Positions 24,120 to 60,507 of a stretch of 64,000 nt of DNA are shown here, piece after piece. This DNA is from a virus. Under the pieces are notes generated by a model, which saw nothing but the letters and a program-made list of their open reading frames with translations, made no database searches and had not been told where the DNA came from. Positions within the stretch are counted from its first letter, which is position 1, and each line of letters opens with the position of its first letter. Where the stretch lies: IMG/VR virus record IMGVR_UViG_3300044846_000719, positions 1 to 64,000 of that record. One strand, given 5' to 3'. Made by a program: the position numbers and the translations under genes.

Positions 24120-24788
24120 TTAATCTATGTAATATCTACTTATTTTATAATAAGATAATCCAGTAGATTCAGATGCTTCTTTCAAGCTTTTGTAAGTAAT
24201 ATTATTAATTGATATTTGTCTAGCATTAGAATTATTTGAACCTGTTCTTTTTTCAGACATTTTTAATTTTGTTTCTTGAGAGTGCTTACTTCCTTTTCTA
24301 TTAAAAGCTTTTTTATGTTCCTCAGACATATAATTTGATAATCCTTTATTCCATGCTTTATTTCCTAAGTTTTTTTCACTAATTATTTTTTTGATTTCGT
24401 TTGTATGAGTTTTTCCAAACATGGGATTTTTCTCTTTGGGATGACTTATTTTCTTTAAGTATTCTTGATATTCAGCAGTATCTTTTCTACCTATCCAAAC
24501 ATCTCCTCCAATTGATGTGTTTTTTAAGTTATAACTTAAAGAATCATTAGCAGCATCTGTTTCTATTAATATTGTTTCTTCATATTTTTTAAAATCAGGA
24601 CCTTGGTATAAAATTTCTCTTATAAATAAATTTAAACCATACTTTTTTAAAGCTTTTTTAATAAGAACCCCACTTGCAATATATCCATCGTCTATATCAC
24701 CAGCATGAGAACCTATATACCATTTATTATTTTGAGTATTTATCCATTTATAAACAAAACCAAGCTTATCTATTTCTATATTCATCAT
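24120..24788 (-). mobile_element. Free-standing GIY-YIG homing endonuclease (Seg-like) with NUMOD3 repeats
   Basis: GFVY...WYIGSH, YNLK, NPMFGKTHT and KHSQETKLKMS motifs. Confidence 0.9.
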
Positions 24789-26033: not shown

Positions 26034-26180
26034 TTATCTACCTTGTCCACGATATTTTGATTCAGGAGTAGCTTTTGGTCCAACGGACTTATGTGCTTTA
26101 CCCTTCTTTTTACTTTTACTAGGAGCTAAAGTTTTTGCTGAAACTGAACTACCTTTCTTTGGTTTTGCTGCTGGTGCCAT
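26034..26180 (-). CDS. Small highly basic protein (48 aa), not in ORF track
   Basis: MAPAAKPKKGSSVSAKTLAPSKVKKKGKAHKSVGPKATPESKYRGQGR; fills the gap between the cassette and dcd. Confidence 0.7.
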   Translation of the reverse strand: MAPAAKPKKGSSVSAKTLAPSKSKKKGKAHKSVGPKATPESKYRGQGR

Positions 26181-26622
26181 ATATATAATATACTGCATTT
26201 TTTAAAGAATGCTGCATAGTCTTATAGAAAAGCTTTTTGTTATGTGGTATTAGTCCTACTTCTAAGAACATAGCATTTAAATACATAGTCTTAGAATTTT
26301 CACCAGTGTAAGTTTTTCCATCAATAGTAACTTTAGTAACTATAATATATTTACGTTGTAAGAACTGCATACCTACAATATTTAATACTTGTTCAGGTAT
26401 TGCAATTGATACAATTTCACCGGTAATAATACTACCTGAATCACAGAGAGAGTACTTATCGGCAATAAGTTCCTCTAAAGTTGCTTTAGCTCCAAACTCC
26501 ACAGCTCTATCAGCTATGTATTTTATTGAAGATGAGTTAGTTACAGTGTCAACCTTGTAACATTGAGCGCTTAAATTGGCCATAATAGTAACGCCAAAGA
26601 TTAGTATAAATAGTTTTTTCAT
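26149..26622 (-). CDS. Exported protein of unknown function
   Basis: Sec signal peptide ending LSA|Q; two Cys. Confidence 0.7.
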   Translation of the reverse strand: MKKLFILIFGVTIMANLSAQCYKVDTVTNSSSIKYIADRAVEFGAKATLEELIADKYSLCDSGSIITGEIVSIAIPEQVLNIVGMQFLQRKYIIVTKVTIDGKTYTGENSKTMYLNAMFLEVGLIPHNKKLFYKTMQHSLKNAVYYIYGTSSKTKER

Positions 26623-26624
26623 GA

Positions 26625-27608
26625 TTAATAAGTTACTGCTCCAGCATAACCAGGAGCTATTATATATAGATTTAAAGTTTGTCCGGTAGTTAAGGTACCT
26701 GTTGTGTACGTACTAACACCTGGATAAGTTATACGTACATTAGTGGTTGCTGCTTTGATAGCATTGTATTCTGTTAAAGTAAAGATACGTACATCAGGAG
26801 CTATTCTCCACTTAGAAAACCTTCCGGCTTTTCTTGCAGCTACATAATACTTATCTGCCACAGATATTATTTTGTCATCATTGACATCAAACATATGGAA
26901 AGATAAACCATTTCTATTAGTCTTATTTAAAACTACATTACTTACTGCTTGAATATCTGTATTAGTGTAGGCTTGAATTCTAGTAGGGGCATTTACTTCT
27001 ATATAATATTCTTTAGAAGGATCATAAGCTTCTGATATAGAATAATATCCTGCTGAGTTAGTATAGATTGTTTTGTAGAGAGCCCAAGAAGAAGTTGTAA
27101 CTAAATACTCAAACTCTAGTACGTAAGCTAGATTATTATTATTGTTTAGGTCATTCCATCTACCATTAGATACAAACTGTACATAGTCTTCATTACCTGA
27201 GTTGTTAGGTTCCCCAGAGTTCCAGTTCTTATAAGAATAAGTCTCTCCTGTCACCCATCTCCAAGTTCCTTCTGTTACCTCATCAGTTAAACCAATCCAA
27301 CCAGAAGGCCATAAAGCGTATAGGAAATTTTGTTCACCTGAACTTGTAATGGTTACTAAGTGACCACCCATATTAGAACAGTTAGTTCTAGCTGTAGTCC
27401 AAGTAGCACTACCTGTAGAACGGTAATAAGAGTGTCCTCCATAGTTCTGTTGATTAGTGAATCCTGTAATGGTTTGGTTTGTTCTTCTGTAGAGCTTTAT
27501 AGCAACGTTAGAAGCACCGGAACCATTTGCATTATACATGTATCCAGAATAAGTAAACTGTGCACTTAGACTATTAGTAATAAATAATATAAGGATAAGC
27601 CATCTCAT
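26625..27608 (-). CDS. Exported C-type lectin with dockerin-like module
   Basis: Signal peptide LSA|Q; C..MGGHLVTI, WIGL, EPN and WND lectin motifs; DVNDDKIISVAD Ca-binding loop. Confidence 0.88.
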   Translation of the reverse strand: MRWLILILFITNSLSAQFTYSGYMYNANGSGASNVAIKLYRRTNQTITGFTNQQNYGGHSYYRSTGSATWTTARTNCSNMGGHLVTITSSGEQNFLYALWPSGWIGLTDEVTEGTWRWVTGETYSYKNWNSGEPNNSGNEDYVQFVSNGRWNDLNNNNNLAYVLEFEYLVTTSSWALYKTIYTNSAGYYSISEAYDPSKEYYIEVNAPTRIQAYTNTDIQAVSNVVLNKTNRNGLSFHMFDVNDDKIISVADKYYVAARKAGRFSKWRIAPDVRIFTLTEYNAIKAATTNVRITYPGVSTYTTGTLTTGQTLNLYIIAPGYAGAVTY

Positions 27609-29053
27609 AGTAATAACTTAGCTCCCATCAATATTTGGAAGTTTAATATATCCTGATTAGCAACATAAGTACCACCACCTGTAATTCCTATACCAAATGT
27701 CTTTGTCATTTTGTATGTAAAGTTAAAGAAAGGAATTATAATTGGTTTAGCTTTGAATAAAGATTCTGTATAATATTTAGAATAGGGAGAATAAATACCA
27801 GCTGCAATTATTGTAGCATCTATATGCTTAGTGAGTTTTCCCTTATACATAAAACCACCTATAGCAATTGTAGAGATCATAGTCTCTCCATATAGTTTAC
27901 CATAAGTACCGGCACCCCCATAAAGTGCTGTAAAATTTTTAACTGAGTTTACTCTAACAAATAAAGCTGTGTTAGAGATTGCATTAGGCATCAGACTAAG
28001 ACCATCTGATATAACATTAATATGCTTCACTCCTTTTGAGTTAGTACCAATCCATGACTTTACACAAGATACATTTCCTATCTTAGCATTAATCATATAA
28101 TCTGCTGAAAAACCAATAGATGCGGTACCATCACCCTTTACCCTTGTAAAAGATGCAGTACCTCTAGCATCTTGAGAACCATCTGCTTTTGTTTGAATAC
28201 CAACTATATCCCCTGTAACCAGGATAGCGGGTTTGGCAACCTCAGCTTTTGCTTTGCCGGCTGCCTTTGCAGTACTAGAAGACTGAGTCTTTTGTGTCTC
28301 AGTCTTGGTCTCCTCTACTTGTTTGTCTGAGGGTTTTTCGGTTTGTACTTCCGTTTTTTCTTCGGTTTTACTACCGGAGGAACCACTACTTCCTGAGCCA
28401 CTACTACCACTGGAGCTTCCACTGCTATTGCTTCCTGAACTACTTCCGGAACTTGAGCCACTGGAGCTTCCGCCATCACTTCCTGGGCTGCTCGGATTAT
28501 TTTCTGAGCTTCCTGTTCCCTGAGTTGGTTCTCCTCCTTCCGGAGTTTTAGAATCTGGATTACTATTATTGCTACTAGTGCTACCAGGCCGATTACTACT
28601 ACTTGATCCATTATTTTCTTTATTAGTTGTTCCTACATTAGTACCTGACGAAGTGCTAGATCCAACATTTACTCCAACACTACTTATACTACCAACGTTT
28701 GAGATGGCCCCTAAATTCATAACACTACTTATGATATTTAGAGTTGTATTTGTAGTAGTTGTCGTAGTAGTAGTTGTAACTATACCTTGACAGGGTGATG
28801 TACTTTTGTATTTCAAATATACACTATTTATCCAATTATCAAAAGTTCCATCTTGTAATTCTGTATATGAAAATGTTTTGACTTGACCATAGTAAGCAAT
28901 TACTATAGGACTAGACATATTTGCGTTAATAAATTTTAACTCTTGCGTGCAAGGGTCTTGGTATTGGTATATAAACTGTTGTGCTGCAAGAGATTTGCAA
29001 ACTAAAAAAATTAAAATAAAAATAACTTTTAATGTTTTTGTCCAAGTTTCCAT
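27605..29053 (-). CDS. Exported protein with S/G/T low-complexity stalk and probable C-terminal outer-membrane beta-barrel
   Basis: Signal peptide LAA|Q; poly-Thr and SSGS repeats; about 200 C-terminal aa of alternating amphipathic strands. Confidence 0.65.
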   Translation of the reverse strand: METWTKTLKVIFILIFLVCKSLAAQQFIYQYQDPCTQELKFINANMSSPIVIAYYGQVKTFSYTELQDGTFDNWINSVYLKYKSTSPCQGIVTTTTTTTTTNTTLNIISSVMNLGAISNVGSISSVGVNVGSSTSSGTNVGTTNKENNGSSSSNRPGSTSSNNSNPDSKTPEGGEPTQGTGSSENNPSSPGSDGGSSSGSSSGSSSGSNSSGSSSGSSGSGSSGSSGSKTEEKTEVQTEKPSDKQVEETKTETQKTQSSSTAKAAGKAKAEVAKPAILVTGDIVGIQTKADGSQDARGTASFTRVKGDGTASIGFSADYMINAKIGNVSCVKSWIGTNSKGVKHINVISDGLSLMPNAISNTALFVRVNSVKNFTALYGGAGTYGKLYGETMISTIAIGGFMYKGKLTKHIDATIIAAGIYSPYSKYYTESLFKAKPIIIPFFNFTYKMTKTFGIGITGGGTYVANQDILNFQILMGAKLLL

Positions 29054-29670
29054 CCCTCTTTTAAATATTTTTCTATTTCTTCAGGTATGACTTTCTTTTT
29101 AATACCATCTTTACTTATATACTTTCTACCTAAACATACTGTTCTATTCCTAGTAGCATGTTCTATAGACACAGATTTTCCTTTTAATTTATTTTTTATT
29201 TTATCTTTTACTTCTTCTGATCTTTTTTTCCCATATATTGGATTATTGGAACCTTCCATCTTTTTTTTTAATTCTTCTTTTCTAGCTTTAACTTCTGTTT
29301 CAGAATACCAATTTTCATACTTCTTACCTTTTCTACCACTAGTTCTACCTTTACAAGACATAGATATTTTTTTCTTAGTCTCTTCTGTACGAGTAGAAGT
29401 ATTTCCATCTCCACCTAAAGTTAAATTTACTAATATTCCTCCATCTATCTTTCTTTTATATTGATTGATTAATTCTATTTCTTTCTTACATGCTTCTTCC
29501 CAAGTTAAATCCATATACAATATTTTTACTTGATATTCAGTTTTACTAACAATATGATTCCAATATCTATTCCTAGCATGTTTAGAATATGCTCTTCTTT
29601 CTGTTTTACCTATACCTATGTAAAACAATTCTTCTGTATCAAGTCTAGTATGTGAGTATACAATTGCCAT
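29029..29670 (-). mobile_element. Free-standing GIY-YIG/NUMOD3 homing endonuclease
   Basis: IVYSH...FYIGIG...RAY, EIELI, LVNLTLGGDG and NPIYGKKRSEE motifs. Confidence 0.9.
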
Positions 29671-29740: not shown

Positions 29741-30430
29741 TTAATTTTTAAACACACTTGCTTTAATGAGATTTTGAATCACATTAGTACAAGCAGTTTC
29801 AAGAGACTTACGGGTAGCTTTTCCAACAGTACTCTGGGAAAATTTCATGTCATCTAAAGATTTTAAGAAGGATTCACCGGTCTTGGTTGACTCACCCTCA
29901 CCAGAACCAATATAAATTTGGCCTGTTTTAGCGTCAACAAACCTAACTTGTAGACGTATGAAAGTAGTGACAACAACTTTTGCTTTAGCACCAGCAACTT
30001 GCTCGTCTTCATCAACAGCAAAATCAGCCACAGTAACATAAACAAAGTAGTGAGCAGGTTTAATCTTACCTTTTCCATCAATGGGTTCATCAAATACACC
30101 TTTTTTAGAGGCTTTAAATTGAGTAACCATTCTCTCTTTAATCTCTGATTTTTCCTCCGTGAATATAAATCTATTAGTTTCATCTAAATAATCCAGTACT
30201 GATTCAGCAAATCCAAGACCTACGTTCTTCTCCTGTAAAGCAGGATACAAACTTAAGACTTTTGTCATGTCTACACTAACTACTTGCACTGTCTTTTTAA
30301 TAGAATCAGTGTAGCCGGAAACTGTGGAGATATCTTTTACCTCTACCGGTTCAGCATCTGTAGTAGTTTTCATACTACCACATGCAAATAATATTGTTGT
30401 CAATAAGAGACTACCAAGGATCTTCTTCAT
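29741..30430 (-). CDS. CsgG/HfaB-family outer-membrane lipoprotein
   Basis: Lipobox LFA-C; GLG...L.ETNRF.FTE, GKIKPAHYFV..TVADF and VRFVDAKTGQI match the CsgG-family pattern. Confidence 0.8.
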   Translation of the reverse strand: MKKILGSLLLTTILFACGSMKTTTDAEPVEVKDISTVSGYTDSIKKTVQVVSVDMTKVLSLYPALQEKNVGLGFAESVLDYLDETNRFIFTEEKSEIKERMVTQFKASKKGVFDEPIDGKGKIKPAHYFVYVTVADFAVDEDEQVAGAKAKVVVTTFIRLQVRFVDAKTGQIYIGSGEGESTKTGESFLKSLDDMKFSQSTVGKATRKSLETACTNVIQNLIKASVFKN

Positions 30431-30725
30431 CTACTTTAGGTTTAGTTGCTGGAGCAGGAGCAGGTGCGGGAGCAGCCTTTTCTTTGATGATAATGGTTTT
30501 ACCCCCACCACCAGTGTTTGCTTGTTGCTTTTGTTCGTTGTTCGTAGTAATGTTAATCACAGGTGCAGGGGCTGCTACAGCAGTTGGAGTTTCTGGCTTT
30601 TCATCTTCACCACCACCTAAGTGAGTAGCAAACCAAGCACCACCGGCTGTAACAGCAGTGGTGATTGCTCCAATAATGGTTTTTTTGATAGCGGACATAC
30701 CGCTCTCTTCTTTTTCTTCTGACAT
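30411..30725 (-). CDS. Single-TM protein with Pro/Ala-rich extended tail
   Basis: IIGAITTAVTAGGAWFA helix and APAPAPA repeats; overlaps the CsgG-like start. Confidence 0.7.
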   Translation of the reverse strand: MSEEKEESGMSAIKKTIIGAITTAVTAGGAWFATHLGGGEDEKPETPTAVAAPAPVINITTNNEQKQQANTGGGGKTIIIKEKAAPAPAPAPATKPKVDEEDPW

Positions 30726-30736
30726 GATATTATATA

Positions 30737-31078
30737 TTAGTTTTCTTCTTGTTTACTATATTTAGCAGCTATAATTTCTGGAGTATCGTCTTCCTCATCG
30801 GTTTTTTTAATTAGCATCTTGTCACGGTCTTCAGAGTTAAACCAATAATCAATAACTTTATTTAAGTTACCAACGAAGGCACCCAATAGAATAAGTAACA
30901 TTTCTTTCCAGTCATCCTCTATTTTTACTCCAACAAATACTGCTGAATTGATTCCTACTATGATTAAAGTAAATAACCCTAAAATTACTAACGTGATTCT
31001 CCACCTATTACTCTGCATTTCCTGCAGCATGTTATAGAATCTATTAGTATCAGGTTTTGTTGTTTCTATATTGCTCAT
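30737..31078 (-). CDS. Two-TM membrane protein (holin-like)
   Basis: Two hydrophobic helices, LLGAFVG...IDYWFNS, charged C-terminal tail. Confidence 0.6.
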   Translation of the reverse strand: MSNIETTKPDTNRFYNMLQEMQSNRWRITLVILGLFTLIIVGINSAVFVGVKIEDDWKEMLLILLGAFVGNLNKVIDYWFNSEDRDKMLIKKTDEEDDTPEIIAAKYSKQEEN

Positions 31079-32970
31079 TTGTTTACAATTATTTTAGAGT
31101 GTAATGATTCTGTTTCAGTAGTTACAGAAAGAATATAAATACCATCTGATAGACAATCTAGGTTTGCACTATACTTGTACTTGCCAGCTGGCATACGTTC
31201 TTTTAAAATAGTCTGTACACGTCTTCCTACTTCATCAGAGATAGACATATCTACATCAGATGCTTCTTTAATCTTAAACTGTATTTGTATATCTCCTTCT
31301 GTAGGATTAGGGAATACTATAATGGAGTTTAAGTCATTAAGAGAGATAGTTCCTTTGTTAATTCTACGTACCTCTACAATACCCATAGCCGGAATAATGT
31401 TCATATCTTTAGAGTTAGCGTCTCCTACATACTTAGCACCTGTCCAGAGAGCTGCAGTAGCCCAACTATCTTGTGGTTTTTTAGCAATAAACTGAAGTGT
31501 AAAAGCTTGCTCTCCATCATTAAGCATATTCTCATTAGTTAAATCAGCACCTCCCCAAGATACTAAACCATTAGAAGGATTAAAGAATGAAGTCCAGTTC
31601 ATTACTTTATCAGTGTTTTGTACTGCTTTAAATTCTAAGTAAGCAGTATCATACTTAAGATCTAATTGTAATGCACCTAACTTTTTACCATTAGTTAAAA
31701 CTTTAACCGGTACATTAACTAGGTTACCTTCTTCTACAGTTACTTTAGGCATATTTACCTCAATAGTTTCTGCAGGGAAATCATAACTTACAGTCTCATC
31801 AATGATGTAACGTTTAGCGTTAGCTGGATTAGTAATTTTAATAGGAGTTAAACGGGCCATTTTAAAGCCTGTAGAGTTTGCATCTCCTTTAACAGCCACG
31901 TAGTAAGTGATAGAATCATTACCATCTACACTGTAAGTAAAGTTATTTATAGTAGAGTAAGTAGAAGTCAAGTTAGAAGTAGCTCCATTAATTGCATTGT
32001 ACTCAGCAACTGTAAAGAACATTACATCTTTCTTAGAGTTAGGCCAAGCAGAGAATCTACCGGCTAATCTACCATATACAGAATATACATCAGCAATAGA
32101 AATATCACCGGCAGTTCCGTTTACATCCATTGTGTAGTAATCAAATCCGGTAGGAGTATATTGACCTAAGATAGATTGGTTAATCTTTTGTGCATCTGCA
32201 GTAGAGAATACATTACCTGGGATCATTGTGTCTCCCTTAACTACAATACGTACATCCCAATAAGTGGTATCTAAGAATTTCTTAAATACAGTAACACCCA
32301 ATGAGTTAGTCTTTTGTGAAGCAATCTGAGACCAAGTAGAAGAACCTTTAGCTCTTTTCTCTAAACTAACTGTTAAATTCTTAGCATCTGTACCGGTAAT
32401 GTTTTTAAACTTAGTAGCAAAGCGCAATACTTTCTGATTGAAGCGTCCACCATAAGAGTAAACTACCAAGGTAGTATCATTACCCCAGTTAGTGGCAGCT
32501 CTGTTAGAAAATGATTTAACACCAGCAACTTTCAAAGTCTTAATAGAATCTAAGTTGTTCCAAACTGTTTCACCTGCGTGAGTAAAAGTTAAATCAAATG
32601 TAGCTCCATTAGAATAGTTAAAAGTAGAACTAGATCCTGTGTAAGCCAAAGTAACTGTCAAGAATCCTTGTAGGTTACTATCTACATACTGAAGGTATTG
32701 ATCAGAAGCAGAAATCTTAAGAGAAGGTACAACTCCTGTAAAAGCAGTCTTATCATAGAATACACGGAATTGTATACCGGTAATCTTTTCTGATGTAGAT
32801 GTATTGTAAAAATGTAAAGGTGCAACAGTTTGTCCTACAGTAGTAGTAGCAACCTGATATCCTGAATCAATAACCACCCAATGACCTGTACCGGGTGATG
32901 TAGCAGAACTTTGTGCAAAGCTTAAAGAAGCTATTAAAGTTCCGAATAGTGTCGTAATCAATTTTTTCAT
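31075..32970 (-). CDS. T9SS type A cargo protein: cohesin / Ig-like / dockerin-like / cohesin / CTD
   Basis: Signal peptide SFA|Q; cohesin-like GIQFRVFYD and NVPV...GALQLDLKYD; DVNG..GDISIAD; CTD VFPNP...GR.V...LSDGIYIL...KIIVNK. Confidence 0.9.
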   Translation of the reverse strand: MKKLITTLFGTLIASLSFAQSSATSPGTGHWVVIDSGYQVATTTVGQTVAPLHFYNTSTSEKITGIQFRVFYDKTAFTGVVPSLKISASDQYLQYVDSNLQGFLTVTLAYTGSSSTFNYSNGATFDLTFTHAGETVWNNLDSIKTLKVAGVKSFSNRAATNWGNDTTLVVYSYGGRFNQKVLRFATKFKNITGTDAKNLTVSLEKRAKGSSTWSQIASQKTNSLGVTVFKKFLDTTYWDVRIVVKGDTMIPGNVFSTADAQKINQSILGQYTPTGFDYYTMDVNGTAGDISIADVYSVYGRLAGRFSAWPNSKKDVMFFTVAEYNAINGATSNLTSTYSTINNFTYSVDGNDSITYYVAVKGDANSTGFKMARLTPIKITNPANAKRYIIDETVSYDFPAETIEVNMPKVTVEEGNLVNVPVKVLTNGKKLGALQLDLKYDTAYLEFKAVQNTDKVMNWTSFFNPSNGLVSWGGADLTNENMLNDGEQAFTLQFIAKKPQDSWATAALWTGAKYVGDANSKDMNIIPAMGIVEVRRINKGTISLNDLNSIIVFPNPTEGDIQIQFKIKEASDVDMSISDEVGRRVQTILKERMPAGKYKYSANLDCLSDGIYILSVTTETESLHSKIIVNK

Positions 32971-33419
32971 TTGTTTATATTATTTAAAGCGTGTTCTATC
33001 AACCAAGGTTCTGGGTTTGTTAATTTTTCTATGAAGTTTAACTCATACATATAACAAAATGTCTCTTCTTTTGCGGGAATAAGTTCTATCCCTTTTTTAG
33101 CTATGTACAAGTGAAGACTTTCATGTACTAGCACTACAGCAATATTATTTATAGAGTTTAATTTAATATCATCTACTGCTATGTAGATATGACCTAAACC
33201 ATCCTCTATTTGACATGAAGAGTAAGGACTAATCATAAAAGATATTTGATAACAATTTGTATCAAGCATCTTATACTTATCTATGTCTACTCTTTTTATT
33301 AGTTGAATTGCTGAATCAACTTTTAAATCCCAACCATCCCCGGCTTTGTCAATTTTTATTTGACTAAAACAAGGGACGGCTAAGATTATTAAGAGGCTAA
33401 ATAATAACCTCTTTAACAT
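32967..33419 (-). CDS. Exported HEXXH zinc metallopeptidase-like protein
   Basis: Start reassigned to MLKRLLFSLL (signal peptide CFS|Q); VLVHESLH with downstream EE..CY. Confidence 0.75.
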   Translation of the reverse strand: MLKRLLFSLLIILAVPCFSQIKIDKAGDGWDLKVDSAIQLIKRVDIDKYKMLDTNCYQISFMISPYSSCQIEDGLGHIYIAVDDIKLNSINNIAVVLVHESLHLYIAKKGIELIPAKEETFCYMYELNFIEKLTNPEPWLIEHALNNINK

Positions 33420-33420
33420 A

Positions 33421-34008
33421 TTACTTAATGTCTTTAGACTCAATAAGAGTGTATGTAAAAGAATTACCACCCAATGCAGCAGCCTTCTTACAGATAGCCA
33501 AGAATGCATCAAAGTCAGCAGACTTCTTAAACACTTGACAACCTTCTGACCAGTTCTCAACATAAGTAGAGTCTGCACCAGCTTTATGAATGTTAATACC
33601 GAAGATCCCTTCTTGTATCTTGGACTCATCATAGTTCATGTCTTTATTAGCATCACGGTAAACTTTAACGTTAGCCTTTTGTTTAAGGGCCTCGTATTTG
33701 CCTTGGTGTAATGCAATGTGATGTGAACCTGAGTATTGACCAGGTACTAAACGTGCAACACCTGCAGCGTTATGGAATTCTTTAACTCCTTTAGTTCCTG
33801 GATCTGTAGTAGCAGGCCAGATTTTAAATTTCCACTCTCCACCTTCTTTGTAAGAAAGAGTCAAGTTGTCATCAAATACGTTAGTTACTTTAGTACCAGT
33901 GGCAGAGTTTCTAACACCAATAATGTTGATGTTAAAGTCTCCGTTTTCAAAGTACTTGTAACCTTTGGCTTTCATAGCCGCTTCAATTTGTTCTCTAGTA
34001 TAGCTCAT
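33421..34008 (-). CDS. Endolysin, probably YkuD/L,D-peptidase-like
   Basis: GINIH-x10-WSEGCQV His/Cys motif; downstream of a holin-like gene. Confidence 0.7.
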   Translation of the reverse strand: MSYTREQIEAAMKAKGYKYFENGDFNINIIGVRNSATGTKVTNVFDDNLTLSYKEGGEWKFKIWPATTDPGTKGVKEFHNAAGVARLVPGQYSGSHHIALHQGKYEALKQKANVKVYRDANKDMNYDESKIQEGIFGINIHKAGADSTYVENWSEGCQVFKKSADFDAFLAICKKAAALGGNSFTYTLIESKDIK

Positions 34009-34014
34009 ATTAGT

Positions 34015-34737
34015 TTATAGTTTATAGTTTATAGTAAACAGTAAATAATTCCAGTTAGTCTTGCTTTTAACTTTTCCTTGGCAGTAAGATCTTAACTTGT
34101 TGTAACTTATTTCAGTAATCTCTGAAGCAATTCTGAGATTCTCATAAGTCTCTCCTGTTTCAGTATTGATTACTTGTTTAGACTTAGGATTATCTGCACC
34201 AAGTCTTACTGAATGTTTTCTATTCTTAAAAGCTTCAGAATTCTTTAAAGACTCTTTTATCTTAAGTTTAGTTTCTTCTGTAAGGGTGCTACCTAATCTA
34301 CTCTGTCTAAGTTTTTCTTTTGTTTCCTCAGAATGATTCTTTCCATAAAAGTGGTTCTTTTCGCCCACTCTTAATTTAGCTACTTCAGATAGATTCTTAC
34401 ACATAGATTCTGGTAAAGATTTTCCTGTCCAGTATCCAACTTCATGTCTCCAACCTAAAGTACCTTGACCTCCATCAGTCCAATTAACTAGACTACCTCC
34501 ACAAGTATCTACTCTGCCATACACACTTATCAGTTCTATTTCTTTTACACAAGCCTCCTCAAAAGATAAATCATCTAACATAATCTCTACTCTATACTCT
34601 GAGTTCTTTACAACATTATGCCAGTGTTGATTTCTACTTTTAGTTTGGTGTGCTCTAGAATAATTAGAATCTGTACCTAATCCAATATAGAAAGGTACAT
34701 TCTTATCTAACCTGATATGTCTGTAGACATAAGCCAT
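34015..34737 (-). mobile_element. Free-standing GIY-YIG/NUMOD3 homing endonuclease
   Basis: YVYRH...FYIGLG, EIELI, LVNWTDGGQG and NHFYGKNHSEE motifs; paralogous to 29029..29670. Confidence 0.9.
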
Positions 34738-35252: not shown

Positions 35253-35259
35253 AATGTAG

Positions 35260-35274
35260 GGGGAGAAATCCCCC
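35260..35274. terminator. Hairpin between convergent genes
   Basis: GGGGA-GAAA-TCCCC. Confidence 0.65.
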
Positions 35275-35275
35275 A

Positions 35276-38200
35276 TTATTTTACATAGAAATCTGTTACA
35301 TTATCATAAGACTGCCACCTGTTTATTGTATACAGTACCGGCAATGCATCTGACCATTGTTTATTAAGTTTTAACTCACCTTTTCTAGAACCTTGTTTAT
35401 AATACAAACTTTCTTCATCAAATGCATAGTTGTAAGGAAAAGCAAATGTATCACTAACAGCCTCTCCTAACTCACCAAGTAACTTAGATGAAGCAATAGG
35501 ACTCTTCATTAACATGTAAGCATTAGCAGGACTAATGAAACTTGTTAATTCTGATGTTTGTCTATCTGCTTGATAAGCCAATCCATTTAGTAATCTTTTA
35601 AGTTGTTTGTCATCATCATCTAAATCCATACCCGCAATTAATGAAGATATAATATGAGCAATAGCAAATGAAGATAATATAAATGTAAGTTCTATAGCTA
35701 CTCGGTTTAAGTTTTTAATTTGATCCTCTCTTAAACTTTCTTTAGCATCTCTTATCTTAGTAAAGATATCTCCTCTGGCAGATTTAATATGAGAGATAAA
35801 GCTTGCAAATGTCCGGTATCTACCCTCAATCCAACCAAGGTTTTCATCATAGTACTCTCTTTTAAATCTTGCTTTAAATGCTGGATATACCCACTTGTGA
35901 AACTGGAATACTAATTTACCAATACTATAATCTTGTAAAGCTGCTCTATCTTCAGGAGAATAGTTACCGTGTATTTGTTTGTTTACTTCACGGATATTAT
36001 TCCTAATATCATAACGTTCATTATCTGATAAATCAAATCCTGTTTTTAAAGATAACTCCCCGGTGTTAGGATCAAAGTCATAAGCATCATAAAGAGAGAG
36101 TGTCTCACCTTTATCATTTTCAATCTGCTTAGACATTAAGATTGCCATACCTACTTTACTCTGTACATTTGTTTCCGCAGCATCTTGTAAAACATAACCC
36201 CACTCCATTAAACCACCCTTCTCTTTTACCTCACGTTGAGCTACACTATCTACCATTCTATACTGATATAGTAAGGCCTCATACTTTGATTGTGGTTTTT
36301 TCTCACCATAGTATCCTTCACTAGTAGCTAATCCTTTAAATACACCAGGTAAATATTCACTGTTGTAAATACCTGTTGCTCTAAGCATAGCTTTTCTATC
36401 ATAGAATAACTGACCACCAGTCTCAATGCCGTTGTTGATTCTACCCATAGCATAGTTATTGATATTACCAAAGATGTTAAATCCTACATATGATAAAGAT
36501 GTGGCATTAAGTACTTTACTTATAACGTTATCTAATGTGCTTTTATCAAACTCGGACTCTTCATAGTAAACCATCTTTAACCATTTCTTCAAACGGGTAG
36601 CTGTTCTACTCTCTGAGCCAGGAATTGTTTTAGCTTTAGTTCCGCCAGTTGCTGTACGTACAAGTACATTTTGAGATTGTACATACTCTCTATTTTCAAC
36701 AACTCTTTTTAGTGCATAGATAGTATCTTCTGCATTAGTTAAGTGCTGATAGTTAGAAGCCATTGCTCTAAACTTAATTAAGCTATCTACTAGATCAGTA
36801 TTAAGTTCATCCTTAGTAAGCATAGATTCATTTCTCTTAAGTTGTTTTTCTAACTCCTTTAGCTGCTCTCTATACTTAACTGTAGATACTTTACCATCTC
36901 TAAAACTAGTTTGTAACTCTTCTATTTCAGATTTAATCTTATCAATACTAAACTGGCTTTTTAATTTGCCGGTAAAGAAGATTGGTGGTGTTTCAATAAT
37001 ATTACCCTCTTCATCTGTAAGAACTATCTTTTGATAACCCTCATCTGTAAAACTTTTAAACCAACTAGATACTGACTTACTTAGTAAGCTAGTCACACTA
37101 GATGGATTATCTTTTAACTTGTTTAAGAAGTTTTGTTTTTGTCTAGGTAACTTACCTGTCATATCTCTTTTAACAGAGGGAGGTAACATCTTAAGTGCAC
37201 CATTTTCAAACTCCTGGATCCAGAAATCATAGAACTCTTTCTGAGCTCTCTCTAATTCTGTAGTAGGATTCATGATCTTGACATACTTTTCATCAAGCAT
37301 ACTCATACCATTATCAGCTACATCTTTTACCTCTTTAAACTCAGGCTTTACAAACCAAGACTTTCTAACAGCTGTAGCACCTAAATAACTACCGTCTTTC
37401 TCTCTTTGTGCAGTTACGTATTCAGAGTAGTTATAGTATTTATTTCTATAAATAGCATACTCAGCATCTGATATGCCACGTTTCTTTTTCCATCCATAGT
37501 TACGATATTCTTCATACTTATCCCTGATCTTCTTAAAGTCATCAGTGTATTTATGAAACTCACCATCAGTTACTTCACCACCAATTACTCTTTCAGCTTT
37601 AGTAAAATCACTATAAGCTTGTCTATTAGCAAATAATTCTTGATTGAATTTAATATCCTCTACTTTAGCATCATCAAGATTAGGAATGTTGATGTACTCT
37701 AACCAGTTATTATTATTATCTACAAGCTTGTTTCTTAAATCATAAAACATCTTATAGTATTGGTAACCAATCTTTTGTACATACCTACCAGTAAAGTTGC
37801 CATCTTTATCATAAACTAACATATAATCATATGATGGCTTACCTCCTGATAAAGATGCTAATCTATTACCTATAGTAATTGCTTTTTCACTAAACTGTTG
37901 AACATCATCTGCAATCTTTTGCTTCTCCCTCTTAAATACTTTATCAACCAAGGCTAAGATTGTATCTGTACTAGTAGCCAAATCACCAAGTTGTGCATCT
38001 GCTACAGAGATATCATTAGTCTCTTTAATAATTGTCTTTAAATCATCTTCAGTAAAGTTTCTATTAGAGTTAGTTCTAATGAAGTTAATTGTAAAGTTCT
38101 CTATAGCCTGATCAATAGTAGAATCAGCAATATTTAATAGATCTGTTACTGCAATTGCAATATCTCTCTGACCTGGATTAATAACATTACTCAAACTAAG

Positions 38201-40567
38201 ATTACGAATACCTCTATAGGTTTCCATAAATTTACTAAACATAAGTACTACAGAAATATAATCTTCTTTAGCAACTGATTTTGGATTAGAGGCATACTTG
38301 ATAAAGTTCTCTAACTCTTCTTTAGAACTGTTTAAGAATCTACCTAAAGCTATATCAGCCTTACCGGAGTTTATCTCAGTACTAAGTACAGCAATCAAAC
38401 TATTAATTTTATCTATAGTCTGTTTCTTAGGTTTAACTTGTTTAGATGAATCAATAATACTTTGTAAGGCATCATTACGTTTTACTAACTGTGAAACCAC
38501 ATCCTTCATAAACAAAGAAATGTTTGTATATTGCTCATCTGTTAAACCGGCCTCTGGTTTCTCTTGCTCAGGAGTTAAAAAGTCAGGATTATTAGTAACG
38601 TTAAAACCATTTTTAATCTTAAGATCATTAACTACATTCTGAAAAGGAATAGTAGGAATTATTCTATCTACATAAGCTAGATTTTCTGTCTCATTATGTT
38701 GTACTACACCTTCTACTCTAAAACTTTTTACCTTCTGATCTTTACCTTGACCTTCTATATTTAAGTTATAATGATAGGTAGATACACCAGATACCGGGAA
38801 ACCATTGATATTAGCTAACTTGGCATAACCCATTACCTGAATACTTTGCTGTTGCTTAGTAGTTAATTTTTCACCCGGTAATAAAGTACCTTCATTTGTA
38901 GAATAAGGTACATCATAGTATCCAGGATCTTTTATACTTGTCTTAGATACTTTTAAATCTATAATGTACAATGACCCATCTGGCTTAATAATTAATACAT
39001 CTAATGAACCGGCAATTTTAGATTGATCATCAGCAAGAATAACTTGCGGTAAGATTATAGAACCATCTAACGTAAGAGTAGCTACATATGCACTAAGTGA
39101 ATCATATGCATCTTCAGCTAAAGCTGGATCTAATACAGTCACACTTTCTAGGGCCTCATCAAATGTTTTACCATCTATAATATCCTGAAGAATCTTATCA
39201 AAGTCTTTACCAAATAACCTATTCATTTCATATAGATCATTTGGATCATTAAGACCACCTTTAATAGCAGAAGTCATAGATTTATATTCCTCTCCCGTCT
39301 CTAAATTAGTATACGTGTGTGTATCTTCATCTAAGAACATTGGTGTATCATATAGAGTATCTACTATATCTCTCTGTAAATTATTTATAGCTCTATCTTT
39401 AGCTGCTTTCTTACTGGCCTGTTTTCTAATATACTCAGGATCATTCTTATCAATACTTAACTTAACTGAACTTTGTACTTCACTAGTAATAGGTCCTGTT
39501 GTAAAGCGTAACTCTTTAGTATTTAATAACTTAGCAATATCAGTAAGGGTAACATTTTCATTTAAATCTTCAGCAATAATATCTAAACTATTACCTGTAA
39601 TGCTTTTATAGATATCATTTATGATTTCTGCAAACCATTCTATCAACTCTCTAATTGCAGTTTTAAATGAATTACCTGGTTGATTCTCATACTCTTTTTT
39701 AAAGTATCTAGTCAATGCTTGAGTAACTAACTCAAGGTCTCTATACTTTTCAAAAAATCCTTTTTTATTAGCGTAACTATCTTTTATCTGTTGTTCTAAT
39801 ACTGGAAAACTTTTTCTTGCTTCAACAACTAACTTACCAAATATATCAGGCCTACTAACATATAATGCATCTACTACTGGGTGAAGCATTTCTTCAATTG
39901 CTGTCTCAGTAGTAATCCGGCTCTTAATTATATAAGCTTTGTTCTGATAATAAAAACTCTTAACGTTTTTAAAATTTACTATTGGCTTATATGGTAATGA
40001 CTCATATAATTTTTTAGCATCCTCTACAGATACTATCTCATATTCTACATCTGGTAAAATAGTAGATAGATACTCTAGTACATCAATAGCATTATTTGTA
40101 TTCTCTGATTCTCCAATTACATCAACCGGAGTAAACATATTTTCATTAATTGTAAACTCTATACTATTTTGTGTAGGTCTAAAATCATATGTTTCACTAG
40201 ATATCTTATTATAATTCAGATAGTTAATAATTCTATTTTTATTATTTACAAGAATAGCAGGATCTATTTCCTGCATACCTTCTATAGTACCTGTTACAAA
40301 GTATCTGATTTTATCACCAACTGTGACACTAGATATCATGCGCCTCCTTCTGAGATTACTAATTACAGCTTCAGCATATTGTTTCTTTTTAACACTAAAC
40401 TTTACTTTATTAGCCTGTACAATTTCTTGAGCTTCTGCAATACTTGGAAATGTATCTGAATCTCTTGAAGATTGATATTGATCAATGATACCATCTACAA
40501 TTAGATTGTTATTATATATACCCATTAGGGCCTTGTATTCCGGTAAATTTCTATTATGACAAGCCAT
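35276..40567 (-). CDS. Large virion cargo/ejection protein with a PD-(D/E)XK nuclease domain
   Basis: 1763 aa directly downstream of vRNAP; IAGSLDVL...IIDLK...QQQSIQVMGY; degenerate zincin-like EEMLHP. Confidence 0.75.
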   Translation of the reverse strand: MACHNRNLPEYKALMGIYNNNLIVDGIIDQYQSSRDSDTFPSIAEAQEIVQANKVKFSVKKKQYAEAVISNLRRRRMISSVTVGDKIRYFVTGTIEGMQEIDPAILVNNKNRIINYLNYNKISSETYDFRPTQNSIEFTINENMFTPVDVIGESENTNNAIDVLEYLSTILPDVEYEIVSVEDAKKLYESLPYKPIVNFKNVKSFYYQNKAYIIKSRITTETAIEEMLHPVVDALYVSRPDIFGKLVVEARKSFPVLEQQIKDSYANKKGFFEKYRDLELVTQALTRYFKKEYENQPGNSFKTAIRELIEWFAEIINDIYKSITGNSLDIIAEDLNENVTLTDIAKLLNTKELRFTTGPITSEVQSSVKLSIDKNDPEYIRKQASKKAAKDRAINNLQRDIVDTLYDTPMFLDEDTHTYTNLETGEEYKSMTSAIKGGLNDPNDLYEMNRLFGKDFDKILQDIIDGKTFDEALESVTVLDPALAEDAYDSLSAYVATLTLDGSIILPQVILADDQSKIAGSLDVLIIKPDGSLYIIDLKVSKTSIKDPGYYDVPYSTNEGTLLPGEKLTTKQQQSIQVMGYAKLANINGFPVSGVSTYHYNLNIEGQGKDQKVKSFRVEGVVQHNETENLAYVDRIIPTIPFQNVVNDLKIKNGFNVTNNPDFLTPEQEKPEAGLTDEQYTNISLFMKDVVSQLVKRNDALQSIIDSSKQVKPKKQTIDKINSLIAVLSTEINSGKADIALGRFLNSSKEELENFIKYASNPKSVAKEDYISVVLMFSKFMETYRGIRNLSLSNVINPGQRDIAIAVTDLLNIADSTIDQAIENFTINFIRTNSNRNFTEDDLKTIIKETNDISVADAQLGDLATSTDTILALVDKVFKREKQKIADDVQQFSEKAITIGNRLASLSGGKPSYDYMLVYDKDGNFTGRYVQKIGYQYYKMFYDLRNKLVDNNNNWLEYINIPNLDDAKVEDIKFNQELFANRQAYSDFTKAERVIGGEVTDGEFHKYTDDFKKIRDKYEEYRNYGWKKKRGISDAEYAIYRNKYYNYSEYVTAQREKDGSYLGATAVRKSWFVKPEFKEVKDVADNGMSMLDEKYVKIMNPTTELERAQKEFYDFWIQEFENGALKMLPPSVKRDMTGKLPRQKQNFLNKLKDNPSSVTSLLSKSVSSWFKSFTDEGYQKIVLTDEEGNIIETPPIFFTGKLKSQFSIDKIKSEIEELQTSFRDGKVSTVKYREQLKELEKQLKRNESMLTKDELNTDLVDSLIKFRAMASNYQHLTNAEDTIYALKRVVENREYVQSQNVLVRTATGGTKAKTIPGSESRTATRLKKWLKMVYYEESEFDKSTLDNVISKVLNATSLSYVGFNIFGNINNYAMGRINNGIETGGQLFYDRKAMLRATGIYNSEYLPGVFKGLATSEGYYGEKKPQSKYEALLYQYRMVDSVAQREVKEKGGLMEWGYVLQDAAETNVQSKVGMAILMSKQIENDKGETLSLYDAYDFDPNTGELSLKTGFDLSDNERYDIRNNIREVNKQIHGNYSPEDRAALQDYSIGKLVFQFHKWVYPAFKARFKREYYDENLGWIEGRYRTFASFISHIKSARGDIFTKIRDAKESLREDQIKNLNRVAIELTFILSSFAIAHIISSLIAGMDLDDDDKQLKRLLNGLAYQADRQTSELTSFISPANAYMLMKSPIASSKLLGELGEAVSDTFAFPYNYAFDEESLYYKQGSRKGELKLNKQWSDALPVLYTINRWQSYDNVTDFYVK

Positions 40568-40570
40568 CTC

Positions 40571-43500
40571 TTATAAATAACATTTTTTTATTTGTTCTAC
40601 AAAACTATTTTGATCACCACCATTGGTCTTTACATAATCTTTGTACTGATCTACAAAGTTAACCAATGAAGTAATATTTAAATCTTGTTTTATTTTATCT
40701 TTTTGTTCATCTGTAAGTTCCATAAAGAACTCACTAAGAACAGGATAATCAGTCCTTGCTTTAAACATTGCACCTATAGCAGGATTAAATGCCGCAGCTG
40801 GCACATTTGCTAACATAGCTTCTACATCACCAATCTCTGGTTCTTGAGCTTTAGGTGTTAAAGTCTTAGCTAATTCTGCAGGTGATTTTGCATCTGTTTC
40901 ATATGGTTTACCATCTTTTTCATATACAATCTTTTTACCCACTGTTTTAGCTTGAATACCATTAGAAGCTAAAGTACTATTAATATTAGCTGGAGCATTA
41001 CTAAGATCTATATTGCCTAATTGTTTATCTATATTGGCTGCTTGATCATCAATTAATTTATCAATATTAGTATCAGGCATTGCTCCAGGATTATTAAAGA
41101 CATCTTTATTCTTTCTATTAGCAAATAGCTGTGTACTAGTTGGTAAATTACCGGGTATTACAAACCCTGAAGCAAATTGTTTTTTAGAACCAGTTGAAAT
41201 AAATTTTTCATACTCAGCAGACACACCAAAAGCATACACATCACCAGGTTGAATAAGATCAGCTAAATTTTCTTTATTATCTACCCTATCTCTTTTTACA
41301 GTAGTTAGTTTATAATAAGTAATAAGTTTACTCTTATCTGAAAATTCTACTATTTTAATAACTAATGGAAAACCAATCTGTGTTTTTTCATCCTTATTTG
41401 CTAAAATAAAACCTAAAGCCTTTAAATATTTTAAATTGTATCTATATAATTTCTTACCTTCCTCAGTTAATTTAGATGGACCAGGTAGAGAAATCATAGG
41501 TTGTACAATCTGATAATTACCTTTACTATCTACAATCATCTCATCACCTTTGTAATTAGAAACATCACCTAAAGGAATCATTTCTTTTTCAAATTCTGTA
41601 TTTTTAAATACATTAACTTCAAGTTTATCATTAGCAATTACCATTGGGGATTTTAATTCTACACCAGAAGCAATATTTAAATCTTTTTTAAGTTCATTAA
41701 GTTGATCATTCTTACTAATCTTTGACCTTATATTTTTTGTAAAGAATGTTACACTAGAAGACTGTAAGAATCCTCTAACAAATTCATTATACAATTCATT
41801 AAGATTTACACCAAATGTTTTTACTACTAATCTATCATCAGCCTGACCTTTTAATGCGGTAACAGCAGAAGCAGATGAATTAAGAATCATTTCAAACATA
41901 AAGTTTGGCATTATTCTAATAAAAGATCCTGACTTAAACTGACCACCATCTTTAACTAATAAGTAATGGAATAAGTCAATTGCATATGGTCTAGTTAACT
42001 CATTAGTATATAACTCCATAAAGCTATACTGTATCTTATTAACTTGTAATTTACTTAATTTAGTCCAGTTATTAAACTCTACTTTATTTATAGCATCTTT
42101 ATTAGCTCTATTACCTGCAGTGATAGCAAACAAAAACTTGTTTACAAAATAGTTATTAGGGCTTAACTCTCTTAATTTTTTAACAACATCAGTTACATTA
42201 TCCATATTTTCAGGTAATGTACTTGCTGTCTGGTCATAAATCATTCCATTATTTAGAGAAGCAAGTGCTCTATTATAACCACCTTTCTTTAATATATTAA
42301 CATATGCTTTAATTGCAAAGAAAGAAATTAAGTTTTTATCTAAAGTATTTTTAAAATTTTTACGGTCTCTAAAATTAACGTCCGTATTTGCTATTACAAT
42401 ATCACGTAATCTATTAACCACTGGAGTACGGTTAAGCATGACACTACCCATTAAAGATTTAATTTCTCTATACACGGTAAAATTAAATCCAAATGTATTA
42501 TCTGAATTACGTAATAATGCACGTACATCAAATGGTATTGAACTAACTTCAAACTCTTTGTCATTCATTTCTAAACCTAAATCAACAGCTTTATTATAAA
42601 TCTCATCAAACTCTGTTAAATCTTTATTAGGTAGACCTTTGTTAAGTTTTAATATTGAAGATAAACTCATCATAGCATCACTTTGTCCTATAAGTACCTT
42701 AAAGTTATTAAGAACCGCTATTTGTACAGCAGCAATATTTCTTCTAATACCTTCTTCAAGATCTGCTGTTGTAATATTAGAAGGAACTTCAGTTACTTTA
42801 TATTCATCCATTAACTCTTTGATAATAGCTGTTTTACCTTTAATTCTTTCGCTATCTTTTGCATAAGATGATTTATTAGTTCTTAAACGTTTATAAAACT
42901 CATGTATTATAGGTTGATTAATAAATAATATACTATCATCTAATGACACACCCTGAGCAATCATATTTGCTACAATACCAAGAGAATCTATATTCAAACC
43001 TAATTTAGCAGCAAGACGTTCTTTAGCGTTATCTGTCATGGCTGATACTAAAGCTGACAAGATAAACATTATACGTTCACCATCATATTGTCCAGTTTCT
43101 GGATTATATGCTTGAGTCTCACCATAAGTATCAAACTCTTTACCATTAAGTTTAAATCTTAAGTTAGTAAGATCTATTTTCTCACCAGTTTCATCAGTAT
43201 AACTATTTGTTTTTCTAATTTTTATTTTATAAGGATTTACTACTGTATATACCAACAATGCGTTAACTGCAGCCCCAATATTTCTAGAACCTTCCTTATT
43301 ATTTCTAAATCCATAATATTTACCTAATAAAGTATCTACATTATATCTACCTTCTTCTAATTGATCTCTAAGTTCAGGAAATCTTTCAGTAAAGCTTTTA
43401 ACAATATCTTTAAGAGGTTGTACAGTTGCTACCTGGAATGCTTTAGGAATTTTTCCTTCTTCGGCAGTAACCATATCCGTATTGTTTAATAAAGCAATAC

Positions 43501-57394: not shown

Positions 57395-57415
57395 ACTTTA
57401 CATTACAATATACTA

Positions 57416-57423
57416 CAAATTTA
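57416..57423 (-). promoter_or_regulatory. TAnnTTTG element upstream of the cargo/vRNAP operon
   Basis: Reverse complement TAAATTTG, 21 nt before ATG 57394. Confidence 0.45.
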
Positions 57424-57451
57424 CAGGGTTTATTAAACTTATAAAAGTTAA

Positions 57452-60400: not shown

Positions 60401-60502
60401 ATTCTTATACCATATGGCTTTTTGCTCTGGTGTTAAAACGATAGGAGCTTCTTTACCCGTTTGAGCTTTTGGTAAACTCTTAACCCTTACTTTTCTTTTC
60501 AT
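57452..60502 (-). CDS. Large putative virion protein (1016 aa)
   Basis: EAEGGET...GPNHS...GGVP motif, AQxG(G) repeats, N/Q-rich C-terminus. Confidence 0.65.
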   Translation of the reverse strand: MKRKVRVKSLPKAQTGKEAPIVLTPEQKAIWYKNQGMFGNPLQDLPYFSPTIAADVYAGNPNTTGNFNVGMPSFETNTNPSFYADVYQGDPNTTGSFNTGTKINENVSNIRGTSFANFLPADVYQGQANLTPGLPMGTPLEMPSDFKKSAQQSWDYQIPGNKTKPQQQKGNPYIGPALLATTDVFSSVARKIQDRNAQANLTDQLLADNLFNPRPEDYSGNKGDYLINTPGIGPYFRPNEYVSGSKFKEAQMGGEMKRKIRITSMPQAQYGGTQNAKAVNQLYGNSAYMMNIFSGATKGEPETVVNQSMTAAPRSTAVLEAEGGETIVRPGDDGIPQLYTINGPNHSKDPNAEGGVPLDGNQAPEGSFIFTKQKSMKIKNSDYQDMLGLNPSKKGYVIADVSKKFNLNDPTYRKILADPNSDTIEKVTAQRMLDNYTTKLGQLALIQEEMKGFPQGIPSIAHPYLQKIGVNPQDMMPVNPSEGMQTAMYGGMPKAQTGFNLGNVSGAFNQFMPPVQQRIQTPVINQPRPAQRAPVAAPGATEYSVLSEIENYNPVLGADLLIGQYGDYTADYDQLKTTLEDPVIKERLLTDYNNAHPKDKFTGSSDEFVKNYLENQRHAYALTANYPEDILNSEDWDRVKKFGKENVVYEAAIKKLGLNPLDKPEIAKWQSGYQILGKLSISNDPVISTKLKRFRWTPEGVTDEKSYLGKLNVSEEDAVFGNTSNRQIAKLRKEPEPKPEEGGYNYYQEDIDTTPKYKRNDFYIQDVMNTGLGLANRLNINQYNPTMSQYEPELMKPTYYDPNRELANNAEMVNIAAQNLAQFTGPQAFNARFSDLQGRGLANAANIEARYNNLNVGVANQFEQANKQITNQGKLANQKSTQDYLAGLAIASQQYDNSVNQANTNLVQSGLVPAFTNRAKTQVMNSLVSDYMIDPRTGGMLNFNPAGRQFSGSSTQSGKAGLSSFISDLEKEDPYFKALSPKDKYEVAMKLANNRNKSKKEVDADRLAKFFGLNDN

Positions 60503-60507
60503 GTCAA

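Follow-up and report, generated by a model that had tools for sequence, protein, structure and literature searches.

The window analyzed here is a 64,000-nucleotide stretch of viral DNA, positions 1 to 64,000 of IMG/VR record IMGVR_UViG_3300044846_000719, and the element of interest within it is an open reading frame (ORF) of 631 amino acids (aa) that belongs to a block of eight genes, all of whose products carry a signal peptide or a transmembrane (TM) segment. The protein, referred to below as the scaffold after the role predicted for it, consists of a signal peptide followed by a divergent cohesin-like beta-sandwich, an immunoglobulin (Ig)-like sandwich, a dockerin-fold module and a type-I-like cohesin, and ends in a type A C-terminal domain (CTD) of the kind recognized by a type IX secretion system (T9SS). 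These elements are located in the window as follows:

31075..32970, minus strand: scaffold gene, a single ORF of 631 aa
32914..32970, minus strand: Sec signal peptide, residues 1-19, by sequence inspection
32491..32889, minus strand: N-terminal divergent cohesin-like beta-sandwich, residues 28-160 (sub-threshold Pfam match, hhalign, language-model neighbours, strands of the AlphaFold2 model)
32227..32469, minus strand: Ig-like (CnaB/prealbumin-type) beta-sandwich, residues 168-248 (AlphaFold2 model)
32035..32217, minus strand: dockerin-fold module, residues 252-312, built of three helices with a single canonical calcium loop of the F-hand type (D282-D294)
31843..32034, minus strand: beta/alpha extension, residues 313-376, that follows the dockerin fold and is conserved among homologues, ending in an invariant GDANxTG
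31357..31797, minus strand: type-I-like cohesin, residues 392-538 (Pfam and structure matches)
31078..31332, minus strand: T9SS type A CTD, residues 547-631, with PNP, GxY and terminal K motifs (PF18962 and TIGR04183)

The two ends of the scaffold carry the signals from which its export is predicted. At the N-terminus, a KK-containing n-region and a hydrophobic core precede a cleavage site, placed by eye, between SFA and Q, and the glutamine at position +1 (Q20), a Bacteroidota-type feature, is nearly invariant among homologues. At the C-terminus, two curated sorting-domain models, PF18962 (44.4 bits at residues 552-629, cut-off 27) and TIGR04183 (37.6 bits, cut-off 23), place the CTD at residues 552-630, the extreme end of the protein, and a profile scan found it to be the sole CTD in the 96.6-kb record. 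The modelled domain (residues 548-631) aligns with the PorU CTD (6za2_B) at Z 9.5 and a root-mean-square deviation (rmsd) of 2.5 Å over 84 residues, a score tied with those of other Ig-like domains. Both the Sec signal and the clear type A CTD reported in a preliminary description of the window are thereby borne out, and the CTD call is firm. Because the scaffold combines a bona fide type A CTD with a Sec signal, the natural inference from its sequence is that the phage uses the host T9SS to export it. It is very improbable that the protein instead stays inside, as a virion or cytoplasmic component whose ends happen to resemble a signal peptide and a CTD. Ig-like domains are indeed common on virions; however, two independent sorting models score above cut-off, the signal peptide is conserved together with its Q at +1, signal peptides or TM segments are found in all of its block neighbours, and a PHROGs scan of the scaffold, which returned nothing useful, gave no match to a structural family.

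The start codon of the scaffold gene overlaps the stop codon of an upstream gene encoding an HExxH (zincin-like) protein, and its stop codon overlaps the ATG of a downstream gene encoding a 113-aa membrane protein, the shared sequence being ATGA in each case; such overlaps at both ends of the gene fit translational coupling within a tight, co-directional block. A full-length AlphaFold2 model built from 30 homologues (pLDDT 80, pTM 0.66) contains five folded units, and neither this model nor searches of Pfam, NCBIfam and PHROGs detected a catalytic or other passenger domain. That the protein lacks a catalytic passenger had been proposed at the outset, and since no passenger of any kind is detectable, a scaffold-only reading fits.

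The C-terminal cohesin is matched by PF00963 at residues 403-524 (41 bits, cut-off 24.1), and its model (residues 392-538) aligns with 4dh2_A at Z 17.4 (rmsd 2.1 Å over 146 residues) and with 1g1k_A at Z 16.5, Foldseek giving TM-scores of 0.78-0.83; a phmmer search of PDB sequences with the scaffold yielded weak cohesin matches only. The call, which had been made from the letters as a second cohesin-like domain, is therefore firm. The corresponding claim for the N-terminal domain holds in part. In its favor, hhalign relates this domain to the scaffold's own cohesin at P 4.8e-4, aligning 70 columns and keeping the FRVFYD/LDLKYD motif in register, and 28 of its 30 named language-model neighbours carry Cohesin; against it, the PF00963 match of 18.8 bits (E 0.002) lies under the same cut-off.

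Between these two domains lie the Ig-like and dockerin-like modules. The Ig-like domain is a seven-stranded sandwich in the AlphaFold2 model, in keeping with the Ig/prealbumin-like domain originally described. When the dockerin region (residues 249-385) was folded alone (pLDDT 80) and aligned to 48,161 representative PDB chains, the 12 best chains were all dockerins (Z 6.1-2.9), the next, unrelated chain scoring Z 2.4. The best match was to 4fl4_A (Z 6.1, rmsd 2.0 Å over 58 residues), followed by 4dh2_D (Z 6.0) and 2ccl_B (Z 5.9), absolute values being modest because the domain is small, and the best Foldseek matches were likewise dockerins (TM-score 0.70). The second calcium loop, DVN..I[ST]I[AS]D, is a canonical F-hand that carries one extra residue in the scaffold's lineage, the equivalent loop in a paralogous lectin module reading DVNDDKIISVAD. 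Three dockerin-like calcium loops had been suggested for this region: DVNG..ISIAD stands as the canonical F-hand, whereas STADAQ forms helix 1 and GDAN falls in the beta extension, outside the dockerin fold. The model thus suggests a dockerin fold with one likely calcium site, an assignment made at the level of fold only, the module not being a member of the Pfam family by profile.

The 96.6-kb record contains exactly two cohesin or cohesin-like modules, both in the scaffold, and exactly two dockerin-like modules, one in the scaffold and the other at the C-terminus of a lectin encoded in the same block:

26625..27608, minus strand: exported C-type lectin of 327 aa, a probable partner of the scaffold (Lectin_C, 66 bits; no CTD)

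The Ig and dockerin-fold modules of the scaffold together form a unit that is paralogous to the C-terminal part of this lectin; the paralogy to the lectin ORF extends over scaffold residues 198-367, and the Ig-dockerin-like module of the lectin lies at about 26628-26969 on the minus strand. In other phages, the head of the protein occupying the lectin slot varies (Lectin_C with Laminin_G_3, Lectin_C with Ig_7, or GEVED with Big_1) while the tail is conserved, and these tails score 16.5-17.7 bits against Dockerin_1 (E 0.004-0.01), under the cut-off of 22.9. Since the scaffold holds both plug and socket in one chain, its self-polymerization is possible; to judge from the sequences, however, the paralogous Ig-dockerin module of the lectin is more likely to be the partner of the scaffold than is the scaffold itself.

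A second, cultured version of the block is found in Flavobacterium phage vB_FspM_immuto (MW353176), a 160-kb myovirus of Flavobacterium sp. LMO8, a genus known to possess a T9SS. The block is common to both phages and corresponds in immuto to genes 13-19. The scaffold, fused here, is there divided between two genes, one encoding a signal peptide, cohesin-like domain, Ig domain and dockerin without a CTD, and the other a signal peptide, cohesin and CTD. Six of the eight block genes have a match in immuto, with identities of 49% for the lectin, 31% for the adaptor half and 25% for the cohesin-CTD half of the scaffold, 52% for a TM protein, 43% for a CsgG/LpoB-like protein, and 28% for a barrel; no homologue of the HExxH zincin or of the 113-aa TM protein was detectable. 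The immuto adaptor ends at the position matching the end of the GDANxTG extension, and at the place equivalent to the Ig-like domain the immuto lectin has a weak SdrD_B match. The immuto genes are annotated only as cohesin domain-containing, lectin C-type, or hypothetical proteins, and no paper discussing the block was found. Such a pattern of fusion and fission predicts that the two halves bind each other, and the separation of adaptor from anchor argues for a tiered chain over a simple homopolymer.

Homologues of the scaffold are numerous. More than 1300 metagenome proteins match it, the top matches all being 630-633 aa long with both cohesin and CTD, and full-length relatives extend down to 24% identity in a library clustered at 50% identity. 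Within IMG/VR, 354 loci were confirmed, with 34 further loci recovered using a query from a second clade (41-48% identity). A search of 185,579 species genomes returned two loci only, and both were rejected as chromosomal, each being phage DNA: RFPL01000028.1 is a 16.5-kb phage contig, 94% identical, that had been binned with a Sphingomonadaceae metagenome-assembled genome (MAG), and CAIWBA010000291.1 (L008) is a 254-kb jumbo-phage-like contig with a T4-like topoisomerase II and an endolysin, binned with a Bacteroidetes MAG. A real bacterial chromosome bearing the scaffold was therefore not found among those genomes, and among 50,697 deposited phage records only four, all of Flavobacterium phage immuto, match it. 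The block is present on at least three phage backbones and hundreds of IMG/VR contigs, and its sequence distribution indicates movement between backbones, since the 254-kb contig and the other loci have only the block in common.

The fetched loci contained 106 intact homologous scaffold ORFs, 79 of them distinct, and the ratio of nonsynonymous to synonymous substitution rates (dN/dS), computed on 28 sequences, was 0.14. Values ranged from 0.07 to 0.25 across all domains, indicating purifying selection throughout; the dockerin-like part is the most conserved region and the signal peptide and CTD are the least. A second apparent split, in which representatives begin at Met371, was rejected, for the matching IMG/VR locus carries a fused ORF of 639 aa and these representatives are gene-call fragments; the one genuine split is that of the immuto type, with a separate signal peptide on either half.

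On the sequence evidence set out above, the chances seem slightly better than even that the protein is an enzyme-free, phage-encoded, T9SS-exported scaffold for the display of lectins, made for the host envelope. To judge from its signals, the scaffold would be exported by Sec and would then fold in the periplasm, where the host T9SS would recognize its type A CTD and carry it across the outer membrane, to be attached to the surface or released. Once outside the cell, the type-I-like cohesin and the divergent cohesin-like domain would serve as sockets and the Ig-dockerin-like unit as a plug. A chain could then be built in which the anchor cohesin holds the adaptor dockerin, and the cohesin-like domain of the adaptor holds the dockerin of the lectin; immuto would assemble the same chain from three separate proteins, while anchor and adaptor are fused here. 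In the fused form, the inner cohesin-dockerin link may be made within one molecule or between molecules. The cargo is most likely the lectin, because the only other plug in the record is borne by this co-transcribed, exported, CTD-less protein. The net effect would be to place sugar-binding heads on the infected cell or its debris, with likely benefits in sticking to neighbouring hosts or particles, or in masking of the receptor. If this is true, the phage gives infected cells a new sugar-binding surface, a matter that bears on how, in aquatic Bacteroidota, phages steer the aggregation of hosts, attachment to particles, and superinfection, and the protein is a compact natural scaffold for T9SS surface display. 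The cultured pair of immuto and Flavobacterium sp. LMO8 makes the display idea directly testable.

Several observations weigh against lectin display. Firstly, the N-terminal domain, being below the Pfam threshold, can be called only cohesin-like. Secondly, the hidden Markov model check proposed for the dockerin did not succeed as such: Pfam Dockerin_1 (PF00404) finds no match in the scaffold, nor anywhere in the 96.6-kb record, even at E<=10, and when the PDB was searched with a profile made from the module, a solved dockerin was reached only at E 0.62, which is not significant, so that the dockerin fold and its 12 best PDB chains carry the assignment. Thirdly, the first calcium loop is degenerate, and the two duplicated F-hand loops (DxNxDGxxxxxD) that define type I dockerins are thus not both present. 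Additionally, the lectin, as predicted from its sequence, lacks a CTD and with it any known route across the outer membrane, and we know of no precedent for piggy-back export through the T9SS; the lectin might cross in this manner, with the help of other block proteins, or only by release at lysis. Lastly, the repeated linkage of the block to endolysin genes, described below, may reflect a role in lysis instead of display.

Much of this would also suit an adhesin or surface coat, secreted through the T9SS, whose cohesin and dockerin folds serve only as structural beta-sandwich and calcium modules; no specific pairing of plug with socket would then occur, and the lectin would have an action of its own, such as one in the periplasm. 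Such a coat, which we consider unlikely but not negligible, accords with a dockerin call made at the fold level and with a single canonical calcium loop, with an N-terminal domain under the Pfam cut-off, and with a lectin that has no CTD. It does not readily account for the presence of two sockets and two plugs in one record, for the split in immuto, which leaves the adaptor without an export tag of its own, or for the swapping of heads on a conserved dockerin-like tail, the dockerin-like part being also the most conserved portion of the scaffold.

Mutants of Flavobacterium defective in gliding or in the T9SS resist phages, and the scaffold might on this account be a decoy cargo, its CTD serving to occupy or modify the T9SS, the gliding apparatus or surface glycans such that superinfection is excluded or progeny are kept from sticking to debris. 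The CTD models do mark the protein as true T9SS cargo without an enzyme, late expression is predicted from the gene layout, and both superinfection and competition have been raised for phage T9SS cargo (Bellas et al., 2020; PMC7468147). For jamming alone, however, there would be no need of cohesin, dockerin-like and lectin modules kept by purifying selection, nor of six other exported proteins, and there is only a slim chance that this accounts for the scaffold.

Bacteria are known to build enzyme machines by cohesin-dockerin assembly, and Bacteroidota to export proteins of their own through the T9SS; what stands out at this locus is that a virus combines the two, with no enzymes and with lectins for predicted cargo. 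Adaptor and anchoring scaffoldins of clostridial cellulosomes include Clostridium thermocellum CipA, with its X-dockerin (X-Doc) dyad, and A. cellulolyticus ScaA and ScaB, with OlpA and OlpC providing anchoring cohesins in C. thermocellum. The scaffold resembles these clostridial proteins in several respects: its cohesin is of the type I kind (Z 15-17 to the cohesins of OlpC, OlpA, CipA and ScaB), its dockerin fold spans roughly 60 residues and is immediately preceded by an Ig-like module, as in X-Doc dyads, cohesin and dockerin occur in one chain, as in adaptor scaffoldins, and the phage lectin slot places variable heads on a conserved dockerin-like tail. It differs in coming from a phage of a Gram-negative host, in bearing a T9SS CTD in place of SLH or sortase anchoring, in having lectins and not enzymes as cargo, their binding being predicted only, and in possessing one canonical calcium loop, no Pfam Dockerin_1 match, and one or two sockets. 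A cellulosomal scaffoldin has several cohesins that assemble dockerin-tagged enzymes; here, one firm and one divergent cohesin are accompanied by a lectin and no enzyme. The protein may therefore work like a scaffoldin, but it is not a cellulosome component. Small proteins of about 245 aa from uncultured FCB-group bacteria (P0237, P0244, P0245) share the signal peptide-cohesin-CTD layout of the immuto anchor and of the C-terminal third of the scaffold; they are only 24-33% identical and lack the adaptor half.

Phage-encoded T9SS cargo, thought by presumption to exploit the secretion machinery of the host, has been reported previously for "Cryophage" (Bellas et al., 2020, Nat Commun, PMC7468147). 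Those genes likewise encode type A T9SS sorting domains, but the cargo consists of enzymes or PA14 domains (endoglucanase, GH39) encoded in a hypervariable island, whereas the scaffold is enzyme-free, carries cohesin and dockerin modules, and is conserved within an eight-gene block. Similarly, CsgG/CsgF ("curli") clusters with no assigned role occur in pelagimyophages and in the Methylophilales phage Melnitz, for which host aggregation ("sibling capture") or control of lysis has been proposed (PMC7029224, PMC9004378). They too encode envelope or secretion proteins, and the scaffold block includes a CsgG/LpoB-like protein, a lead from language-model features only; they differ in using type VIII and not type IX secretion, in the phylum of their hosts, and in having no cohesin, dockerin or lectin parts. 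No paper was found describing a viral cohesin-dockerin set.

The scaffold and lectin genes are accompanied in the block by six others:

32967..33419, minus strand: 150-aa exported HExxH (zincin-like) protein, syntenic in about 110 loci, with no family match
30737..31078, minus strand: 113-aa protein with two TM segments, its identity still 66-80% in the distant clade
30411..30725, minus strand: 104-aa protein in which a TM segment at the N-terminus is followed by a periplasmic stretch rich in Pro and Ala and by an acidic tail whose last residue is W
29741..30430, minus strand: 229-aa exported protein, CsgG/LpoB-like
27605..29053, minus strand: 482-aa exported protein in which a Cys-pair head is followed by a long stretch rich in Ser, Gly, Thr and Asn and by a beta-rich domain at the C-terminus
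26149..26622, minus strand: 157-aa exported protein, a cassette member by synteny

The order is HExxH protein, scaffold, 113-aa TM protein, 104-aa TM protein, 229-aa protein, 482-aa protein, lectin and 157-aa protein. By tblastn of the neighbours, the eight genes co-occur in about 80 close IMG/VR loci and again in the 34 loci of the clade with 41-48% identity, where order and strand are shuffled on contigs of 100-270 kb. The 229-, 482-, 150- and 157-aa proteins have no Pfam, NCBIfam or PDB sequence match. The 229-aa protein has a lipobox cysteine here, while immuto and several other phages have a plain signal peptidase I site (AQ) at this position (homologues compared: L003, L008, L102 and L120); lipidation is thus not a conserved feature, and this is hard to reconcile with an outer-membrane pore of the CsgG type.

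The position of the block bears on the possibility that it opens or remodels the outer envelope at lysis, filling a spanin-like slot, with the TM, CsgG/LpoB-like and barrel proteins acting and the scaffold and lectin serving to target or organize them. The block directly follows a holin and an endolysin with no terminator between, it adjoins an endolysin in three different arrangements involving two endolysin families, no spanin pair was recognized, and phage CsgG/CsgF operons have been proposed as lysis regulators (PMC9004378). In immuto, however, the block sits among nucleotide-metabolism genes, and the 18-kb locus that was examined there yielded no match to an endolysin; moreover, breaking an outer membrane calls for neither lectins with exchangeable heads nor a T9SS tag, and the resemblance to CsgG lies in language-model features without a conserved lipobox. 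A lysis device is, on this evidence, distinctly unlikely.

Returning to lectin display, the distribution of the block allows a broader proposal, which we hold tentatively and rate at somewhat less than an even chance: that it is a self-contained and horizontally mobile "viral cellulosome-like" kit of Flavobacteriia phages, composed of a T9SS anchor/adaptor scaffold, dockerin-tagged swappable lectins and six further envelope proteins, by which the host surface is re-dressed. The block is abundant in phages of lake and brackish waters and moves between unrelated phage backbones. If true, the kit is the first cohesin-dockerin assembly system of a virus, and lets the phage control host adhesion and aggregation ("sibling capture") or mask the receptor.

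Among the smaller block proteins, the 113-aa protein is the best conserved, its identity remaining at 66-80% where that of the scaffold is 41-48%. The 104-aa protein ends in Trp in the three homologues whose C-terminus was read, its gene overlaps the next by 20 nt, and its layout resembles that of a periplasm-spanning tether. From phage to phage, the 482-aa protein differs greatly in the length of its Ser/Gly/Thr/Asn-rich middle (proteins of 353-576 aa), while the Cys-pair head and the beta-rich C-terminal domain are retained.

The record as a whole, about 96.7 kb and about 81% complete, is that of a phi14:2/crAss-like phage from lake water, its hosts presumably being Flavobacterium-type bacteria. 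Its plus strand encodes helicases, a primase, a clamp-loader-like ATPase, an exonuclease and a DNA polymerase within 1-24 kb, the polymerase being ~36% identical to that of Cellulophaga phage phi14:2; the minus strand carries giant ORFs of 1763 and 4687 aa and a terminator, followed by the holin, a homing endonuclease, the endolysin and the scaffold block. The original attribution of the gene to a phage is upheld by this replication module together with the holin, endolysin and homing endonucleases of an IMG/VR virus. The remaining features near the block are:

35259-35274, both strands: strong terminator, a perfect GC-rich hairpin that works in both directions and separates the 1763-aa gene from the holin
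34015-34737, 29029-29670 and 24120-24788, minus strand: three GIY-YIG/NUMOD3 homing endonuclease genes, scattered through the block
33421-34008, minus strand: endolysin candidate (phrog_3000 and phrog_33083 only; no Pfam family)

The hairpin upstream of the holin is the only convincing terminator, and it marks the start of a transcription unit running from holin to cassette; with its co-directional, overlapping genes placed after holin and endolysin, the scaffold block appears to be of the late type. The homing endonuclease genes are recent insertions, since their presence and position differ between otherwise syntenic loci. A Bacteroidota promoter pattern was no commoner than chance, and blastn against deposited phages gave no match. 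In related phages the block is paired with a different endolysin family (phrog_181 in the 254-kb contig L008). Upstream of the lysis block, the 4687-aa ORF occupies 40571-54634 (minus strand), with several ORFs of 800-1800 aa in 35276-40567 and 54656-62844; giant ORFs at this position are typical of crAss/phi14:2-like phages with giant virion proteins, and one of them, at 60508-62844, matches DUF5872/DUF5754 and the "DNA pilot" family phrog_220.

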